From: Candidatus Latescibacterota bacterium
GTDB taxonomy: Bacteria; Latescibacterota; UBA2968; GCA-2709665
Length of the DNA stretch: 64,000 nt
NCBI GenBank assembly: GCA_965237675.1
Contig: OZ250150.1
Span: 4,320,001 to 4,384,000 of the forward strand
Direction: 5' to 3'
The notes beneath the pieces were generated by a model. The model saw only the letters and a list, made by a program, of their open reading frames with translations. It was not told the origin of the DNA and did not search any database. Each line of letters opens with the position of its first letter. Within the stretch, counting starts at the first letter, position 1. Position numbers and translations under genes: made by a program. This document shows, piece by piece, positions 7,794 through 64,000 of the stretch.

Positions 7794-8933
7794 ATGAGTT
7801 TCCGATTTTTCTACATCGCCTGTCTCCTCTCGCTGTCCCTCTCCTGTTCCAAGTCCCAGGACCCGATCTCCAACGATACAATAAGAATCGGTTTCCTGGT
7901 CTCCGGCGATCGTTCCTCGTATGCAGATGCGGCCTCGTTGGCTGTAGACGAGATCAACACGAACGGTGGGCTGCTCGACAGAACAGTCGAACTGGTAACA
8001 CGAACCAATATTGTGGATGCCTCAGTAGCGGTCCAGGCCGCTCAACAGATGATCCAGAATGATAGGGTCTTCGCGATCCTCGGCCCCAACCGCTCAACCC
8101 ACGCGGTTCACGTGGGGCCGGTTGCTCAGCAGGCACAGATTCCTATGATAACGACCGGGGCCACTAACCCGAACGTGACGCGGGCGGGTCACTTCGTATT
8201 TATGGCAGCTTTTACTGATCAGTTCCAGGGCGCGGTTCTCGCCCGTTTTGCGTGGGAAGATTTGGGTAAGTCTGTAGCGGCGGTCCTGACCCTAGAGGGT
8301 GATGTATATACTGAAGGTATTTCAATGTTCTTTGTTTCCCATTTCACTGAGCTCGGCGGGACGGTCGTCGCAAACGAGGTTTTCTCTGCCGGCGATACCA
8401 CCTTTACAGAACAGCTTGGGCGGATCTCCGAGGCCGAACCGGATGTATTCTTTATTTCGGGCTTGGTCTCGGATATGACCCACGTGGTCCGGGAAACGAG
8501 AACTGCTCCCGTGCTGAACGCCCAGGGCACACCTGTAGTCCTCCTGGGCGCTGATGCTTGGGACAATCCGTTGTTTCTGGATGCGGTACTGGCCGATGTC
8601 GAAGGAAGTTTCTTTAGCGGACACTTCTCCGCGGAGTCAACCGAACCTGGCGCGAGGATGTTCGTAGAGGCGTACGTGGCCGCATACCAACGTACCCCCA
8701 GCGGTGGGGATGCAGTTAGTTATGACGCTGTATGGGTGCTCTCTGAGGCGGTAGAACGGGCGAGAAGTTTTGAGGGAGAGGTGGTCCGGAACCAGCTAAC
8801 GGCAACGCGAGATTACGGGGGGGCGACTCAGATCGCGCGGTATGATGAAAACCGACATCCGACCAAGAGTGCGGCGATATTGACTATTCGGGATGGGGAA
8901 AGAAGGTTCTTCAAGGAGGTTGGGGCGGAATGA
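7794..8933 (+). CDS. ABC branched-chain amino acid-type substrate-binding lipoprotein (LivJ/LivK-like)
   Basis: Lipobox LSLSC; AVDEINTNGGLLDR; periplasmic binding protein type I pattern; no permease genes adjacent. Confidence 0.9.
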   Translation: MSFRFFYIACLLSLSLSCSKSQDPISNDTIRIGFLVSGDRSSYADAASLAVDEINTNGGLLDRTVELVTRTNIVDASVAVQAAQQMIQNDRVFAILGPNRSTHAVHVGPVAQQAQIPMITTGATNPNVTRAGHFVFMAAFTDQFQGAVLARFAWEDLGKSVAAVLTLEGDVYTEGISMFFVSHFTELGGTVVANEVFSAGDTTFTEQLGRISEAEPDVFFISGLVSDMTHVVRETRTAPVLNAQGTPVVLLGADAWDNPLFLDAVLADVEGSFFSGHFSAESTEPGARMFVEAYVAAYQRTPSGGDAVSYDAVWVLSEAVERARSFEGEVVRNQLTATRDYGGATQIARYDENRHPTKSAAILTIRDGERRFFKEVGAE

Positions 8934-9447
8934 AGGTGTAGAGAGAGACCAGGACAAGGTGTTCGCGTAACACAACGAGGCCCTTGGGCTATTACTCGAT
9001 TATTTAAATTGCCCAGCGGCTCGCCGGCTACGTGCCATTCACGACTTTATCGCTGATACAATAGTAATTCGGACGAATACTGAAACGATCTTCGACTGGT
9101 CTGATTAAACCGATCCTGCAGTGGCCGCATATCGGCGATCATTAAAAGACAGCGAATCGATATCTCAGTTGGAAAAAAATTGGACCGTATCGAACTCAGG
9201 GACAACGACGTATGCGGGGACATTAGACTCGAAATCGACGACCACACGGAATGTATAGCGATGGAGCAATTCCGATCAGCGATATCGGTGGTTGGCAGCC
9301 GCGCTGTTGGATATACAGCCCCGTTTGCGGAGGATCAAAGGGTTCCGCTTTCTTCCCGCACTCAGACTTGCCCTACGCAAAGAACTGAAGCTCGATTTTG
9401 ACACCCAAGACGCTTTCGCCGCTGACTGAACGCCTCTGATATTTCAA

Positions 9448-9618
9448 CTAAAAATAGTACTTGCCCGAAATGAGCGCCTGGGGCGGATACTGTTTCAGTA
9501 ACTCAGTGGCCTTGTCTACATCCAGTCGCAATAAAATTGACAACAGTTCCTCGTTCCTTAACGCCTCCGCGCCCAGGGCTTCCAGCTTCTCCTGGGCTAG
9601 CATTGCCCGGTAAGACAT
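9448..9618 (-). pseudogene. RadC/JAB N-terminal fragment
   Basis: QEKLEALGAEALRNEELLSILL matches the RadC N-terminal REKLxxxGAEALSDxELLAILL motif; the JAB domain is absent. Confidence 0.65.
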
Positions 9619-9621
9619 AAA

Positions 9622-9680
9622 TAATCCTCTCACAAAGGGTTAGGGGCTTGTAAGCCCTTTAACCTACGTAAGAGGATTAT
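9622..9680 (-). promoter_or_regulatory. long hairpin sequestering the RBS of the RadC fragment
   Basis: ATAATCCTCT...GGTTAGGGGCTT-GT-AAGCCCTTTAACC...AGAGGATTAT inverted repeat. Confidence 0.5.
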
Positions 9681-9804
9681 CGGAATACAATCAAAACTTT
9701 GGGAAAAGCGATATAGATGGTGTTACGTCGTTAAGCGCGTTTTAAGCGCTCCTCGGGTCGCGCTCGGGTTTGTTTGGCGGTAAAGTTTAGTGTAGACCCT
9801 GCAC

Positions 9805-9838
9805 GGGTGCCTGGCGATGTCTCAGGGTGCCTGGCGAT
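9805..9838. repeat. 14-bp direct repeat, 20-bp period
   Basis: GGGTGCCTGGCGAT at 9805 and 9825. Confidence 0.6.
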
Positions 9839-9840
9839 AC

Positions 9841-10611
9841 TTAGTGCCGCCTAATATACTGAAGCGCCTGTTGTGCCTTCATACGGACAGGAAACGAACC
9901 ATCTTCATGTTGAGTAATATCTGTTAAACTCATAGCCGTCAGGAGTTCAACCACTGTCTTATCTCCAACATGTCTAAGGGCCTCTACTGCTTGGCCCTTA
10001 ACAAAGTAATAAGGTTCCTGCCCGATCACATGCAATAGCCCTTGCCGGATTAAGTATTGATTTACTTCATCTTGCAAAAAGGGCCAGTTATGCTCAAACA
10101 TCAGGTCAATTGTTTTTGCCGCCGCCCCTGGACGAAACTCAAGATCGTTACGATAAAGAGCCTTCAAGACTGGTTGAAATGCAGGTTTCCCAATCTGAGC
10201 CAGACTCTTTGGAATTGTTAATCCACCCATGCCAAGATATTCCATTAGAAAAGGGACAAATCGAACATCTGCCTGATAAGCGGCCATATCTGTCACAACC
10301 ATATATGCCTCGCCGCACCCACCTAACTTGGGTAGTTGTCGGTATTTTCCATTTATGTGATGTTTATTGATCATATCCAATAACAATACCTTTAATCGCT
10401 CCGGCCAGGGTTCGTGTGGTAAAACACGTAATTGATTGACAACTTTATGATAATTCTCAGGTGTGCTTTTGTAGTAATGATTTTCCCACAAACTGATTGT
10501 CAGTTCGTTAGGAAATGTTCGCTTTGGCCCGCGTGTACCGTCGGGTTGAAGATATCGATCCGCACCAGCACTACCAACTATGATACTGAGAAGAACAATT
10601 AAGGTTTTCAT
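9841..10611 (-). CDS. secreted HEAT-repeat protein
   Basis: ATG 10611 with AAGGAG RBS; signal MKTLIVLLSIIVGSAGA; SLAQIGKPAF, ALRHVGDKTVVELL, VRMKAQQALQYI. Confidence 0.7.
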   Translation of the reverse strand: MKTLIVLLSIIVGSAGADRYLQPDGTRGPKRTFPNELTISLWENHYYKSTPENYHKVVNQLRVLPHEPWPERLKVLLLDMINKHHINGKYRQLPKLGGCGEAYMVVTDMAAYQADVRFVPFLMEYLGMGGLTIPKSLAQIGKPAFQPVLKALYRNDLEFRPGAAAKTIDLMFEHNWPFLQDEVNQYLIRQGLLHVIGQEPYYFVKGQAVEALRHVGDKTVVELLTAMSLTDITQHEDGSFPVRMKAQQALQYIRRH

Positions 10612-52882: not shown

Positions 52883-52974
<92 letters not shown>

Positions 52975-55234: not shown

Positions 55235-55310
55235 TCCGGCGTAGCTCAGCTGGCAGAGCGGGTGGCTGTTAACCACTAGGTCGTAGGTTCGAGTCCTACC
55301 GCCGGAGCCA
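55235..55310 (+). tRNA. tRNA-Asn(GTT)
   Basis: TCCGGCGTAGCTCAG...GGTGG-CTGTTAA-CCACT...GTTCGAGTC...GCCGGAGCCA. Confidence 0.96.
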
Positions 55311-58461: not shown

Positions 58462-58762
58462 TGTCAAGATGCAAAGCCACAATTGACTGGTTGTCCTAGG
58501 ATTCCCTGTGGTCATTTCCCTCCCTTCTTATTGATTTTATTATTTTTACGCCCTTTTTCTTTCTCGCCCAAGAAAAAGGGCCAAAAAGAACGGCGCCGCT
58601 CAGACGCCGCGGGGCTGCTTTTCCGAGAACCACCTCAAAGGCGATTGCCTGGGTTGGTGGCCTGCGTAGTTCCGTGGTGTTCCGTAAACCGTGTTGCTGC
58701 GCGAAGGGCGGCGGTTCGCGAACCGCCCCTACAAAATCTGATCATCCGCAAATCTTAATCGC

Positions 58763-58840
58763 CGGGTCGTAACGTTGGACGACGGCGAGACTATTCACAA
58801 TGCATTCTTTGACAGGGGATTTCGAAAGGAAATGCGATGA
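58763..58840 (+). pseudogene. C-terminal remnant of the putative toxin partner of DUF2283
   Basis: RVVTLDDGETIHNAFFDRGFRKEMR*, with its TGA overlapping the DUF2283 ATG. Confidence 0.55.
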
Positions 58841-59052
58841 AACTACACTATTATCCGGAGACCGACAGCCTCTACGTCGAATTCAAACCCGAACCGGGCG
58901 CGGAAACTCGCGAGGTCGCCGACGGTCTGAATGTCGATCTTGACGCCAATGGCGACGTCGTGGGATTTGACATCGATAAGGCTTCCGTCCGCCTGGACCT
59001 TTCCACTTTGGAAACGACGGCGCTGCCGGTGCGCGCTTACAAAGCGGGATGA
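58837..59052 (+). CDS. DUF2283 family protein (putative antitoxin)
   Basis: MKLHYYPETDSLYVEF...VDLDANGDVVGFDI. Confidence 0.85.
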   Translation: MKLHYYPETDSLYVEFKPEPGAETREVADGLNVDLDANGDVVGFDIDKASVRLDLSTLETTALPVRAYKAG

Positions 59053-60752
59053 ACTGCGGCGGACCTGCGCTTCACGAGTGTGTAATTGAAGAACACGCCC
59101 ACCCAGATGGTATTGCAGCATACGACGAGGAAGCGGAACCACTTGTTGTTCCGGGAATTCTAATTGTCGCTAATTAGCAACGCGCCACCCGGGTCATCAC
59201 GGCCGAAGCCACGACCAGTGACGTGGTCGTCAACACCTGCCTCGCGGAACTGGGATCGGGAAAGACGTAGGCGTAGGCAGGGTAACGACGGAAAACGGCC
59301 AATGATGATCGGTTGTGCTCCGGGCCTGTGAGGTCACTTCCCTCTGCCTTATTATCTCATTTTTCTTTTTTCTTCGTCCTTTTTCTTGTACGCCAAGAAA
59401 AAGGGCGAAAAAGAAGGGCGCCGTTCGGCACGGGGCCGTTCTTTCCGCGAAGCGCCTAACGACCTGGCACAGGCTTCTTTGCCCTTCGTTCCCGTACGAA
59501 CCCACAGGGCTTCGGTGCTGGACGGATTAACGCGGAAAAACCCCCAACCCCCAGACCGGACGCGCCGTCGTTGTATTTGTAGGGGCAACCCTTGTGGTTG
59601 CCCTCGTCGTGGCGCGCGCATCTCCGATTGGCTTCGCCGGGCCATATCGATGTCCGGTGGACGCCGGGTGGCCTTCTTACGTTTCCCGTTTCCCGTCTCA
59701 CTGCCTCATGCGGTGTGGTCCTCTCACTTCTACCGGCTTACGGCTTACGGCTCTTTGGAACTGCGTTTCGGTCGGACACAGGCTTTTCCTCCATCCCTTC
59801 AACTCTCATTTTTCTTTTTTCTTCGTCCTTTTTCTTGTACGCCAAGAAAAAGGGCGAAAAAGAAGGGCGCCGTTCGGCACGGGGCCGTTCTTTCCGCGAA
59901 TTGCCGAAATGGAGAAGACGTACGATGTTGCCCTGCCGGCGCCGCAGGCTATCCAAAACGACATTGCTGAACGGAATAACGCGGAAAAACTCTCCCGCCA
60001 CCGATGTTGCATTTTGCGACACGTTAAGGTGCGTGCGTCCCGCCCGCACAATCGTTTGGCCATATCGCAGAGGACTCCCGCAGGTTCTCTGCTGTAGGTT
60101 TCTCGCTGAATGCTGATGGCTGATCGCTGCGTTTCCTATATGTCTTCGTGCCTTTGTGTGAGCCCATTGTCGGCGCGGAAAGACGGGCGGTTCGCGAACC
60201 GCCCCTACAAAATCTGACATCCTTGATATTGATATCGCCGTGTTACGCGCCGCCTTGGCATTTGTAGGGGCAACCCTTGTGGTTGCCCTTGTCGTGGCGC
60301 GCGAATCTCCCGTTGGATTCGCCGGGCCATATCGATGTCCGGTTTTGGCTGAGTGCTGACAGCTGTTAGCTAATAGCTGTTTTCTGATTGCTTTCCTTAG
60401 CCATTGATAAACATAGTGTTATTCTCTCACACCAGGCGACGAGTGTCCATAGGCTGGGTTTCACATAGAGCTTTCTCGTCCTGCGATTTCCACCGGGCTG
60501 CCGCTAGTAACGAGATCACAATGTAGAATTCCATCGGGTTCTTTTTCTGTACTGAACAATGCATCGGAACTGTCGCAAAATGCAACACATCCGGATCAGG
60601 GTTGAATTGCCCACCAATGCCGATTTTCATATATTCCCCAGGCATCCAATTGACTCCATCCAGGCGGGTTCGGTCGAAGATAGCCACCCATGTAGACTTA
60701 AGGCTTCCAAAGTGGTGACTGTCAATCGTGGAAATGCGAAACGGAATTGCCA

Positions 60753-61571
60753 ATGAACGATCCCCACGTGGTCGCGTTATTTTACAGTATTGATCACGGA
60801 AATGCGGTGAACTACGACGAAGCGGAACCGCTTGTTGTGGAAGAAAAAGCATTTCGTCTTGAAGTAAAGGACAAGAAAGCGTCGGTCTTCCTGAAGGATC
60901 ATTACGGGACGGAAGCAGAAGCCCGTAAAGCCATCGAGGAATACATCCGCACGTGGGAGTTCGATGCGTGTCTGCAGGGCGGGCCGGACTACTTTAAGTT
61001 GAATTATGAACGCCCTGAGATTGTGGACCGCAATCCTCAGACACCACCCCCGGGAGCTGTAGAATTATACCTAACACCAGTGATATTCCCACCGGCATCC
61101 ATTGCAGTTTCTGTTTCCAGAGTTGCCACGAGTTACCCGTCACCGCCGGCCGATGTCAGCGTCACGCCGGACGTCAAGACAATGTATGATCGGTATTTGG
61201 GGTATCGCCGAGGCCGCGAGCCGTTAACCGGGATGGCGTATTTCTGTGTGACTATCTTGGAATGGATGGCCAAAGAAGAGATTGGACGCCATAACAACCG
61301 AAAAATAAAGAAAAAAGGACGCGATGCTGCCGCCGAATATTTCCAGATTTCCAGTAGCGTCCTTAATAGAATTGGGAAGTTATCTACAGAAAGAGGTGGC
61401 CCATCGGAGGCAAGAAAGCGTGAGGGCGTCAAGCAGGATCTGACAGGAAACGAACGTCGCTTTCTGGACGAAGCGATCAAAAAGATTGTTCGCCGAGTGG
61501 CTGAGAAGGCGAAGGCAGGAAAAAGGGAATTAACGAAAATGACAATGTGTGACCTGCCGCCCTGCAAGTAG
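60753..61571 (+). CDS. hypothetical protein
   Basis: 272-aa ORF with protein-like composition and lower GC; no assignable motif. Confidence 0.65.
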   Translation: MNDPHVVALFYSIDHGNAVNYDEAEPLVVEEKAFRLEVKDKKASVFLKDHYGTEAEARKAIEEYIRTWEFDACLQGGPDYFKLNYERPEIVDRNPQTPPPGAVELYLTPVIFPPASIAVSVSRVATSYPSPPADVSVTPDVKTMYDRYLGYRRGREPLTGMAYFCVTILEWMAKEEIGRHNNRKIKKKGRDAAAEYFQISSSVLNRIGKLSTERGGPSEARKREGVKQDLTGNERRFLDEAIKKIVRRVAEKAKAGKRELTKMTMCDLPPCK

Positions 61572-61925
61572 TCGGTTTTATTCCGACGCCCGTGCGCGTA
61601 CGTATCGTCGTCGGTGCGGGACGGAGCAAAAGCTAAGCAAATTGGAAAAGGCAAAGACGAACCGAGAACTGGCGGACGTAAGTACGTGGTTGTATAGCAA
61701 GGTGTTATTTTACTCGCACGCCTATCGAATGCGGATGACATCAACCGTCATGCTTTGAGTTGCCGGGACTGCAACGCGCATCTGCCGAGCTGGTCGGTGG
61801 TCGTCCTATTGGTGTCCGGAACCGATCCCATTTGCATGGCTAACTAAGACGAGAAACTCACACCGTTCCTTCCGACGAGCCGTCATGTCTGGCGGATCTC
61901 GGAGAACGAAAAGGAAGACTAAAGC

Positions 61926-62623
61926 ATGAGTGTCGAACCGAGCAAAATCGTGACCATGGAGCACCGCGCGGTGTTTGCCTTAGTCGGGATGATCCGTACC
62001 GCAACACGTAGGCTGCGACACGGGATCGCACAGGGCGAATGGAATAATCTTCGCAATAACGTGGACCGAATCATTGCAGAGATGGATTCCTCTAACTCTA
62101 GCAAGCCAACACATCGGATGTGTCAGCTTCTAGTCGCTGGTGAGGATCGCCGGTTTTACCATCATCCTGGCGTCGATCCCATTGCTCTGTGTCGAGCCCT
62201 GTGGAAGACGGTCTTCTGTGACAGCCGACAGGAGGATCAACAATTGCGATGCAATTCGTGCGCACCGTAAAAGGGCGCTTCGAATGGACGTGGAAGCGCA
62301 AGCTACTCGAAGTCATTCTCGCAGTTCGCTTGACGCGCCACATCGGACGTGACCGGCTGCCGGCTCTCTATCTCTGGGTCGGATACTACGGCTGGGGAAT
62401 GGACAATTTCAATCAGGCTTGTTCACGTGTTCGCATCGACCCACTTTCAGCAAGCGAACTCGAATCGGCGATGCTTGTCGCGCGTTTAAAGTACCCGGAG
62501 CCACGAAACTTGCACCGCGAACAGATGCGAAGAATTCAATGTCGGGCAGCCCACCTGATCTCGTTGAGAACTTCCAGGGAGGAAAACCTGTTTTGGAACA
62601 ATTCAGCATCCCGGATCCATTGA
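61926..62623 (+). pseudogene. GT51 transglycosylase-like protein with a -1 frameshift near 62230
   Basis: Frame 1 gives EDRRFYHHPGVD; the shifted frame gives GGSTIAMQFVR, RKLLE and ESAMLVARLKYP (GT51 motifs). Confidence 0.75.
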
Positions 62624-63282
62624 GAAAGCTCACTGATCCTTATCCCTCATGGGAAGTTATGCTAAATGCAGCAGGAGGTGGGCGTGAGGCACGGATAGCT
62701 CTGGCTCGTCTCTGGATGTCGGAGGGCATTCCTTATGCATTTCGAAAGTGTCCGGCGGTTTATGAGTCCGTGCGCTCTTGGTTGAGCTTCTCTCTGGGGG
62801 TACATGCAAAGGAAATCGGGCTGGTTGGCAGCGCTCGCATTGGAGAGTCGCTAAATCCTAGGAAATTCGGGAAGCGATTTTCGTGCAATTCTGATTTGGA
62901 TTTGGTTATCGTATCGGAAGTCCTGTTTGGGAAGTTGACGGAGGAATTCCGTCAGTGGTCTCTATCGTTCGAAAGCGACAAGATAACACCGGGAAATTCC
63001 ACAGAGGAAAGGTATTGGCCAGATAATAACAAAAGGGTACCAAGAAATATTGCGGCCGGGTTTCTTGATTCGAAGTTTATCCCTAACCACGAATCCTACC
63101 CGATTACGAGGCGAATCGAAGAAAGCATGTTCCTCTTGACTCGAAAGCTCGAATGTACTCCTAATGCACCCAAAGTCAGGAAAGCATCTGTTCGATGCTA
63201 CGAGTCTTGGGACCGCTTCGTGAGACAGGTTTCCCTAAGTCTCTGGGATGGTTGGGAAAAATGGAAAAGAGATGAATCATGA
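62593..63282 (+). CDS. Pol-beta superfamily nucleotidyltransferase-like protein
   Basis: GLVGSARIG...SDLDLVIVS (GS...DxD); TTG 62593 preceded by GGAGG; overlaps the upstream gene. Confidence 0.7.
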   Translation: MEQFSIPDPLRKLTDPYPSWEVMLNAAGGGREARIALARLWMSEGIPYAFRKCPAVYESVRSWLSFSLGVHAKEIGLVGSARIGESLNPRKFGKRFSCNSDLDLVIVSEVLFGKLTEEFRQWSLSFESDKITPGNSTEERYWPDNNKRVPRNIAAGFLDSKFIPNHESYPITRRIEESMFLLTRKLECTPNAPKVRKASVRCYESWDRFVRQVSLSLWDGWEKWKRDES

Positions 63283-63651
63283 ACCCTTGAAAGCGAATCC
63301 CTGCTTTATCAAAGGGCTAAGTCCTCTGCAGTCAAAAGCGAGATGGACAGAGCATCCGCCTTGACTCTCGCTACTTTCCTCGAGTTTTTTCAAGACGTCG
63401 CTACGGATCCATGCCACATCTTACCGCACCAAGTTCATAACAGGGCGAAATCCTGCGGAACTGACTGACAGAAAGGGCGATAGGGACGTTAATGGCATCG
63501 ACAACAAGACCGAATGGTCAAACCGGATCGGTCAGGGCCGAGAATTCAGCCGGCGTGAGGACGTCGGATCTGCGCACATGATACGCGGTGTCAGTCCTTC
63601 AGTGCGGCAAGGAGTAGAGCGCGAAAACGCAAATAGAAGAAGGAGCGAGGA

Positions 63652-64000
63652 ATGACTTTTGATTTCAGACACGACATGTCAGCGCGCGACGCACGGAAAC
63701 TGGAAAGTTCACGACCGATGCGCCGAACACGGCTTTTTCATTGGATCCGGTGGACGGCTGGAGTGCTGCTGCTCCTGATCATCGCCATACCGATCATGGC
63801 GGCAGCGCAGGACCGGCAGTTGAAGCTCGTGTCGACGGCGTGGCCGCCGTTCACCAACGCGCCAGGCCAGCCGCGGTTCGCCCTCGATCTGGTCGAGGCG
63901 GCTCTCGAACGCATGGGGATCACCGCCGAAACGGTCATCGTGGACGAGGCCAGGCTGACGCCCTCACTACTGAGCGGCGATTTCGACGGAAGCGCGGCCC
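63652..64000 (+). CDS. periplasmic substrate-binding protein (family 3-like), N-terminal part
   Basis: RBS AGGAG; signal segment; LVSTAWPPFT..FALDLVEAALERMG; runs off the window edge. Confidence 0.7.
   Translation, partial: MTFDFRHDMSARDARKLESSRPMRRTRLFHWIRWTAGVLLLLIIAIPIMAAAQDRQLKLVSTAWPPFTNAPGQPRFALDLVEAALERMGITAETVIVDEARLTPSLLSGDFDGSAA

Follow-up and report, generated by a model that had tools for sequence, protein, structure and literature searches.

A conserved gene pair joining a GT51-like protein to a putative Pol-beta-type nucleotidyltransferase, and its frameshifted copy in a Latescibacterota genome

Introduction

In a 64,000-nucleotide stretch of the genome of a Candidatus Latescibacterota bacterium (assembly GCA_965237675.1, contig OZ250150.1, positions 4,320,001 to 4,384,000 of the forward strand; this whole stretch is called the window hereafter), a gene resembling the cell wall synthases of family GT51 is directly followed and overlapped by a gene for a nucleotidyltransferase (NTase)-like protein. 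The textbook role of GT51 enzymes is wall synthesis outside the cytoplasm, and they are targets of antibiotics. A sequence-only reading of the window had proposed an anchor-less GT51-type protein and a Pol-beta NTase as a candidate defence or conflict system. Here, the window pair is found to represent a two-gene operon that is self-contained, moves horizontally and has a translationally coupled NTase, and more precisely to be a pseudogene-bearing instance of a real, strongly conserved and uncharacterised module.

Linkage and fusion of the two genes

The linkage of the two genes was investigated from both sides. In a scan with one genome per species across many phyla, a GT51-like gene was located upstream of the NTase gene, on the same strand, at 57 of 58 NTase loci. 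Both genes were adjacent in 56 of the 58; at locus L054 they are approximately 0.9 kb apart, and L033 has only 72 nt of contig ahead of the NTase gene. Starting from the GT51-like gene, 62 metagenome loci with a strong match were obtained. The NTase gene was directly downstream in 57 of these, four left no room for it, and one had 487 nt of room and no NTase, which means that 57 of the 58 loci with room carry the NTase after the GT51-like gene. None of 18 weak, partial GT51 matches in the metagenomes was followed by an NTase. Clustering of 843 flanking open reading frames (ORFs) revealed no third conserved gene.

When the longest-ORF rule is applied, an overlap of the genes is seen in 33 of 37 pairs; in 18 of these it measures exactly 14 nt, as it also does in an annotated plasmid copy. 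A profile search against 1.84 billion representatives delivered five natural fusions among the 150 matches listed, all with the GT51-like part at the N-terminus and the NTase at the C-terminus (428–634 aa). A search for longer forms added only a sixth one, a 404-aa protein of Vibrio mytili, and the fusion searches gave the NTase no partner but the GT51-like protein. The GT51-like and NTase genes are thus hardly ever separated, and in some cases one polypeptide comprises both. With 57 of 58 loci from either side and the fusions in addition, the pair postulated from the sequence is a genuine module, and NTase homologues in other genomes are indeed linked to GT51-like genes.

A seemingly fused ORF of 521 aa at L043 was rejected as an artefact of the longest-ORF rule, as its two tblastn matches lie in different frames. 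Three irregular loci possibly reflect errors in the assembly of metagenome-assembled genomes: the GT51-like match of L017 (9494-9948) and the NTase match of L060 (10001-10571) are each split over two frames, and the distant genes of L054 occupy positions 8638-10001.

The GT51-like protein family

Residues E44-D45, G74/S76/T77/Q81 and R96-K97-x-x-E100 are invariant in the 31 sequences compared. They correspond to motifs 1–3 of GT51 enzymes with both catalytic glutamates. The motifs align with those of the Aquifex PBP1a GT domain (PDB profile match, E 1e-20), and the spacing of 56 residues between the two catalytic glutamates is the same as in known GT51. The structural model (pLDDT 80.3) was matched by Foldseek to Staphylococcus aureus MtgA with a lipid II analogue (3vmt_A, E 2.9e-4, probability 1.0, TM 0.57) and to 3d3h (TM 0.55/0.63); Aquifex PBP1a was also matched with a probability of 1.0. 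The Pfam domain PF00912 was recognised on all 120 relatives listed and on the fusions with E-values from 1e-27 to 1e-36.

The homologues are nevertheless not ordinary anchored MtgA proteins. Against the MtgA model TIGR02070 the GT51-like protein reached 42.9 bits with a curated cut-off of 182.65, and against PBP_1c 88.9 bits with a cut-off of 494.2. Among the 120 relatives listed, 110 lack any hydrophobic 19-residue segment, nine have one at the N-terminus and one has a borderline internal segment. The nine anchored proteins form a minority subclade, and the window copy has no closer relatives than these. All nine have no lysine or arginine before the helix and three to six within the 15 residues after it. 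Because the positive-inside rule links such a charge bias to membrane topology, an N-out/C-in orientation with the domain in the cytoplasm is predicted for this minority; the anchors of MtgA and of the penicillin-binding proteins (PBPs) are N-in/C-out. No signal peptide was predicted in the GT51-NTase fusions, and fusion to an enzyme that depends on nucleoside triphosphates (NTPs) without a signal peptide argues for the cytoplasm. From these features we infer that the GT51-like domain is cytoplasmic.

Structure and location also bear on the idea that the pair provides resistance to, or a decoy for, phosphoglycolipids of the moenomycin class, the GT51-like protein binding the drug and the NTase inactivating it. 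The model does match moenomycin-bound GT51 structures (3d3h, 3vmr), and NTases are generally known to inactivate sugar-containing antibiotics. However, the predicted location is cytoplasmic while such drugs act outside the membrane, no transporter is linked to the pair, and the context is that of defence islands (see below) and not of an antibiotic cluster. This explanation is considered very improbable.

The NTase-like protein family

Alignment of 131 representatives of the NTase revealed conservation of G79-S80 (0.99), S100-D101-x-D103 (1.0) and D159 (0.86), while G84 is also conserved. The family thereby displays the hG[GS]...[DE]x[DE] signature of the Pol-beta superfamily, with a spacing of 21 residues between G79-S80 and the DxD motif; this is longer than usual for Pol-beta NTases. 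In the structural model (pLDDT 86.8), D159 is located on a predicted strand (157-159), and the protein is approximately twice as large as an MNT, from which it also differs by long insertions and by four additional helices at the N-terminus. None of 120 NTases listed contains a hydrophobic 19-residue segment.

The most recurrent Pfam match below threshold was PF01909, with six of 31 members (best E 0.026) and E 0.01 for the fusion protein P0374. In the ESM Atlas, only clusters labelled 'hypothetical' were retrieved, one of which has PF01909 in 11% of its members and is regarded as a lead only. Comparison with the PDB by sequence gave chance-level matches to QacR (E at least 0.18). The downstream protein is probably a Pol-beta-type NTase of an unclassified family. 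The identity given by the sequence-only reading is thus supported by the GS...DxD signature, whereas its fold is only tentatively assigned, from motifs and weak matches (sub-threshold PF01909, and a structural Z of 4.7 discussed below).

The copies in the Latescibacterota genome

The features of the window pair are collected in Table 1.

Table 1. Features of the GT51-like/NTase pair, with positions numbered from the first letter of the window.
Feature	Position	Strand	Remarks
GT51-like gene, whole	61926-62623	+	232 codons when joined; read in two frames
GT51-like gene, 5' part, frame 1	61926..62231	+	decayed N-terminal hydrophobic segment; motif 1 GEDRRFYHHPG with first catalytic Glu; homology stops at ...FCDSRQ
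One-base deletion	62229..62231	+	missing G; -1 frame homologous from here on; frame 1 stop at 62268-62270
GT51-like gene, 3' part, frame 2	62231..62623	+	GGSTIAMQ (motif 2), RKLLE (motif 3, second catalytic Glu), YLWVGYYGW, ARLKYPEP
Shine-Dalgarno-like GGGAGGAAAA	62576..62585	+	within the terminal part of the GT51-like gene; 8-nt gap to the NTase start
NTase-like gene, intact, 229 aa	62593..63282	+	TTG start; G79-S80, S100-D101-x-D103, D159 and R201/Y203 conserved
GT51-like gene stop	62621-62623	+	TGA

The GT51-like gene of the window is broken. Its first ORF (61926-62270, 114 aa) matches positions 23-58 of the Pfam Transgly profile PF00912 with 35.3 bits, and the frame-shifted stretch 62222-62623 matches positions 64-167 with 48.1 bits, the gathering score of the profile being 27. 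In the alignment with the intact proteins P0206, P0175 and P0183, the end of the first piece (...FCDSRQ) abuts the start of the second (GGSTIAMQ) with zero residues lost; owing to this residue-exact junction, a single base (G) must be missing at 62229-62231. Joining the two frames near 62230, as had been done by eye, therefore yields the expected GT51-type protein of about 230 aa, in which EDRRF, GGSTIAMQ, RKLLE and ARLKYP are all found. No transmembrane segment was detected in the window copy (highest Kyte-Doolittle mean over 19 residues, 1.05), and the Pfam scan revealed no transpeptidase domain. Both absences agree with the earlier description of an anchor-less protein. Its closest relatives P0175 and P0206, however, bear a hydrophobic N-terminal helix, of which the window copy has a decayed form according to the alignment.

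An assembly error behind the frameshift is unlikely, since contigs from the runs X1 and X3, belonging to two other studies, span the deletion site with 0 gaps relative to the window; this comparison was made with contigs and not with raw reads, and one of the runs is possibly the source sample. In run X6 of a third study, related sequences have a G inserted behind 62230 (three contigs, depth 25.1 of 36.3). A programmed frameshift was rejected as well: there is no slippery heptamer at 62229-62231, the related DNA has the extra G, and the aligned or listed relatives are single ORFs except for the split match at L017. As no slippery heptamer is present and nearly all relatives examined are single ORFs, the frameshift is regarded as a simple mutation that inactivates the gene, and the copy in the window most likely has no activity in the Latescibacterota genome. 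Of the working two-gene system that had been suggested here, the pair is real, but its own GT51-like gene is frameshifted and probably not functional in this genome.

The NTase gene is intact. It starts with TTG at 62593, its product is identical to the database protein P0001, and its relatives begin with MEPFxIP. The start lies 8 nt downstream of GGGAGG and overlaps the end of the GT51-like gene by 31 nt, which confirms the overlap of the GT51-like 3' end with the ribosome-binding site and start of the NTase. No match above threshold was obtained for this protein with Pfam, NCBIfam or PADLOC. A promoter and terminator scan of 61500-63700 gave no signals beyond those expected from shuffling, and a terminator was not detected.

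A second copy of the module was identified in the same genome on the minus strand (L156, G000:C1:4234000-4253000), approximately 130–150 kb upstream of the window and at a distance of 140 kb from the first copy. There, an intact GT51-like gene of 204 aa directly precedes an NTase gene that is cut by an in-frame TAG; the two NTases are 45% identical. The order of genes is ResIII (Res-like) helicase, Schlafen/AlbA_2-HATPase_c_4 (Schlafen-like), type III methyltransferase, GT51-like, NTase, GmrSD/HEC-06, UvrD-like helicase and PD-(D/E)XK nuclease, and this defence island is flanked by dnaG and GcpE (ispG-like) genes. Each copy has thus lost a different gene, which fits a need for both proteins, either lesion being sufficient to disable a costly module; with two copies, this pattern is an anecdote.

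The loss pattern is relevant for the possibility that the NTase is the toxin of the pair, acting on tRNA or another target as MenT and AbiEii do, with the GT51-like protein as antitoxin or regulator. This would agree with the invariant catalytic signature of the NTase and with the antitoxin-upstream order that is generally known from AbiE and MenAT. The intact NTase of the window is nonetheless tolerated beside a frameshifted partner, which argues against an NTase toxin. In addition, an antitoxin would hardly be expected to keep all GT51 catalytic motifs across phyla, the N-to-C fusions are stable, and neither PADLOC nor Pfam gave a match to the AbiEii or MenT families. A toxic NTase is therefore judged improbable.

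Genomic neighbourhood and mobility

Genes within two ORFs of the pair were analysed with PADLOC, which covered 148 of 216 neighbour ORFs, and with Pfam. Credible PADLOC matches to restriction-modification (R-M) or defence genes were obtained at 16 of 40 loci (raw count, with five generic matches set aside). PADLOC and Pfam together revealed R-M, defence or toxin-antitoxin (TA)-type neighbours at 24 of 59 loci, again as a raw count, and transposase, integrase or resolvase genes were found near the pair at five more loci. At four loci (L022, L026, L027, L029) the pair is inserted between hsdM/hsdS and hsdR, i.e. inside type I R-M operons, and at L045 it has Schlafen-like and GmrSD neighbours as at the second copy described above. 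By these raw counts, the module is disproportionately located beside R-M and other defence genes, and the defence-type surroundings suspected for it are borne out by these loci, by the island of the second copy and by a plasmid copy situated beside TIR, PLD-like, DUF4365, HNH and AAA ATPase genes. For the window itself, the description as a variable region rich in TA modules was not confirmed: in the region of 47–64 kb, the ORFs noticed were limited to one with DUF2283 and one with an NYN domain, accompanied by lower GC content and hairpin repeats.

The distribution of the module is that of a mobile element. It was detected in at least ten phyla, the phyla are intermingled in a quick tree, in which some pairs across phyla are strongly supported, and among 41 related genomes only four contain the NTase, at 45–49% identity. 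The GC content of the window region is 0.52–0.53, compared with 0.57–0.65 upstream over 34–60 kb. One copy was found among 72,556 plasmids, and none among 50,697 phage records. The only match in a viral collection is an IMG/VR contig (L066, 142-8660), where the pair stands behind P2-like tail genes (sheath, tape measure, GpU, GpD) and in front of an ORF of the uracil-DNA glycosylase family; this may be a cargo position at a prophage end or flanking host DNA.

Proposed function

The explanation that we favour, tentatively and a little short of an even call, is a mobile conflict module with a GT51-like effector that would act from within the cytoplasm on lipid II-type precursors and with the NTase as its controller. 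Both proteins would cooperate inside the cell, at the cytoplasmic surface of the membrane, because the fusions have no signal peptide, the NTase needs NTPs and the anchored minority is predicted to be N-out/C-in. The module may serve in abortive infection against phages or mobile elements, or in a toxin-antitoxin-like addiction. The effector would bind or polymerise unflipped lipid II-type (polyprenyl-pyrophosphate-sugar) precursors, so that the undecaprenyl carrier would be trapped and wall synthesis would stop; dead-end carrier-linked intermediates are toxic. The NTase would control the GT51-like enzyme, most plausibly by nucleotidylylating the enzyme or its substrate, and MNT enzymes are known to nucleotidylylate HEPN toxins. 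The fully specified version, in which an inward-turned GT51 polymerises or sequesters lipid II at the cytoplasmic face of the membrane and locks the undecaprenyl carrier while being checked or switched by nucleotidylylation, with the NTase founding a new family, is possible but doubtful.

Several observations weigh against a conflict module of this kind. The GT51-like gene of the window, being broken, is silent on activity in the host organism. The minority subclade that includes the window copy has an N-terminal hydrophobic helix, and the anchor-less proteins must still reach a membrane-embedded substrate, which is possible according to work on truncated GT51 domains. For the NTase, no Pfam match above threshold was obtained with the window protein and 31 members, and no Foldseek match with its model at E<=1e-3. 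Its best structural neighbour in VIA, the MNT protein 1no5_B (Z 4.7, root-mean-square deviation (rmsd) 3.7, 92 aligned residues), falls into a range which the tool calls common, and so do 5yep_A (MNT, Z 4.5), 8xeh_E (Z 3.4) and cGAS (Z 3.2, rmsd 8.2). The near-absence from phages and plasmids is neutral for defence and fits poorly with plasmid addiction. At 35 of 59 loci, the genes within two ORFs are housekeeping or unassigned ones only. Finally, three loci (L017, L019, L057) adjoin ORFs for a beta-lactamase (PF00144), a PBP transpeptidase or a metallo-beta-lactamase fold, which may reflect a link to the cell wall or a coincidence.

The weak structural neighbours 1no5_B, 5yep_A and 8xeh_E, which are HEPN-MNT antitoxins, lend support to a type VII-like TA addiction without a dedicated anti-phage role, where the GT51-like protein would be the toxin and the NTase the antitoxin that keeps it nucleotidylylated. 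The compact operon with overlapping genes would suit such a system, and the fusions are compatible with it, since fused HEPN-MNT forms are reported in PMC12839542. The Latescibacterota genome moreover retains one intact GT51-like gene (second copy) and one intact NTase (window), as cross-neutralisation would require. With 45% identity between the copies, however, cross-neutralisation is doubtful, and without it the GT51-like protein of the second copy, next to a truncated NTase, would be lethal. The effector-first order is the reverse of that generally known for HEPN-MNT, and one copy in 72,556 plasmids is rare for an addiction system. A pure addiction module is unlikely.

The housekeeping-only neighbours at many loci and the PBP- or beta-lactamase-type ORFs at three of them would rather suggest an accessory pair of envelope metabolism without any conflict. 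It might, for instance, make or modify a glycan or glycolipid that is carried by a polyprenyl pyrophosphate or a nucleotide at the cytoplasmic face, and the substrate would be activated or tagged by the NTase. GT51 enzymes polymerise glycans, every motif is kept, and there are Pol-beta-type NTases that adenylylate sugar hydroxyls (aminoglycoside and lincosamide NTases). Such a pathway is difficult to reconcile with the patchy occurrence (four of 41 relatives), the mixing of phyla and the inactivation of both copies in this genome, as well as with the embedding in R-M operons and defence islands. Furthermore, a biosynthetic partner, flippase or transporter is not conserved next to the pair, and three full-length class A PBP-type GT51 genes are already present elsewhere in the genome. 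This alternative is quite unlikely.

Surroundings of the module in the window

Directly upstream of the module lies an ORF of 274 aa (60747-61571, plus strand). It has no match in Pfam, NCBIfam or PADLOC, and none of the ORFs next to the module at other loci, upstream ones included, is related to it, for which reason it was rejected as a third module gene. A 41-nt stretch at 59109-59149 is 78% identical to 60798-60838, which codes for the N-terminal part (YDEAEPLVV) of this ORF, and suggests a decayed upstream duplicate of its gene.

Several families of hairpin-forming direct repeats occupy 58500-60350, between the DUF2283 ORF and the module. Repeats of 105 nt are located at 59355 and 59804 (97% identical) and repeats of 99 nt at 59560 and 60245, while the palindrome GGGCGGTTCGCGAACCGCCC occurs at 58710 and 60185. 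These repeats are candidate elements of the repetitive extragenic palindrome (REP) or miniature inverted-repeat transposable element (MITE) type, or candidate cassette boundaries. Genes for tRNA-Ser(CGA) (52884-52974, minus strand) and tRNA-Asn(GTT) (55235-55310, plus strand) lie 7–9 kb upstream of the low-GC stretch of the module, and no integrase was seen in the part examined.

Elsewhere in the genome, two small ORFs located 4 kb apart (L154 and L153, G000:C1:2251459-2251716 and 2255465-2255734) have matches to the Transgly profile that are confined to its C-terminal half (89-174). The matches miss the region of motifs 1–3, and the ORF of L153 (208 aa) has an N-terminal hydrophobic segment. 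Both seem unrelated to the module.

Significance

If the assignment is true, an anchor-less and apparently cytoplasmic branch of GT51 that retains all catalytic residues and is tied to an NTase would represent a new use of this fold. Should the pair be a defence or toxin module, the lipid II cycle, hit from the inside, would join the targets of immune effectors; such an attack is so far only predicted, and for an unrelated fold (PMC12419801). The NTase partner, with more than 1,000 representatives at 50% identity annotated as 'hypothetical', would define a new family. In public annotation the GT51-like gene is called 'biosynthetic peptidoglycan transglycosylase', a label which is probably misleading when wall synthesis is inferred from genomes. 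Studies of lipid II biochemistry might also profit from a naturally soluble GT51 as a reagent.

Comparison with known systems

The pair appears to be absent from the systems described so far, as had been supposed from the sequence. PADLOC-DB v2.0.0 contains no family that matches the intact GT51-like protein or the NTase (E<=0.01), and no description of a GT51-NTase pairing was found in the full-text literature, with supplements, subscription journals and newer defence catalogues outside the scope of this search. The comparison with the literature drew on PMC12839542, PMC12419801 and bioRxiv 10.64898/2026.10.19.760177.

Like the module, the HEPN-MNT systems are compact operons for a small NTase, in the module probably of Pol-beta type, and a second enzyme, and they frequently have defence surroundings. 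Both occur in fused forms, for HEPN-MNT according to PMC12839542. In contrast to them, the partner in the module is GT51-like, with a match to Transgly only, and not a HEPN protein. The NTase has about twice the size of MNT, and the order of the genes is reversed.

AbiE and MenAT are likewise two-gene modules with a downstream NTase-like protein, located in defence islands. The upstream gene of the present module, however, encodes an enzyme with intact motifs and not a winged helix-turn-helix (wHTH) antitoxin, no AbiEii or MenT model is matched, and the NTase is tolerated without an intact partner. With the cyclic oligonucleotide-based anti-phage signalling system (CBASS) the module shares the design idea of an NTase and an effector. 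Unlike in CBASS, there is no PADLOC match to CD-NTases, and the effector consists of a GT51 domain only, with no recognisable nucleotide-sensing domain. The direct GT51-NTase fusions argue against the need for a diffusible signal as used by CBASS.

Toxins of the zeta/PezT type poison peptidoglycan precursors. The cytoplasmic Lipocone 'Min-Wnt' immune effectors are proposed to attack lipid II before flipping in PMC12419801, which does not mention GT51 (0 occurrences). Both would have in common with the module a conflict effector acting on cytoplasmic or unflipped wall precursors and arresting or killing the cell, but their folds and chemistry (kinase; phosphoester cleavage) are unrelated to it.

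A further comparison is with the GT51 enzymes themselves, i.e. MtgA and the GT domain of class A PBPs. With them the protein shares a PF00912 match above threshold, all motifs, both glutamates and the fold. It differs from MtgA and the PBPs by the absence of a transpeptidase domain, by scores far below the family cut-offs and by being mostly anchor-less, the anchored minority having the opposite charge bias. Specific changes of the module are GGSTIAMQ for GGSTITQQ, YYGW(R)MN and ARLKYPxP. Whereas MtgA and the PBPs belong to the core genome, the GT51-like protein of the module is accessory and mobile, and obligately paired with or fused to its NTase.

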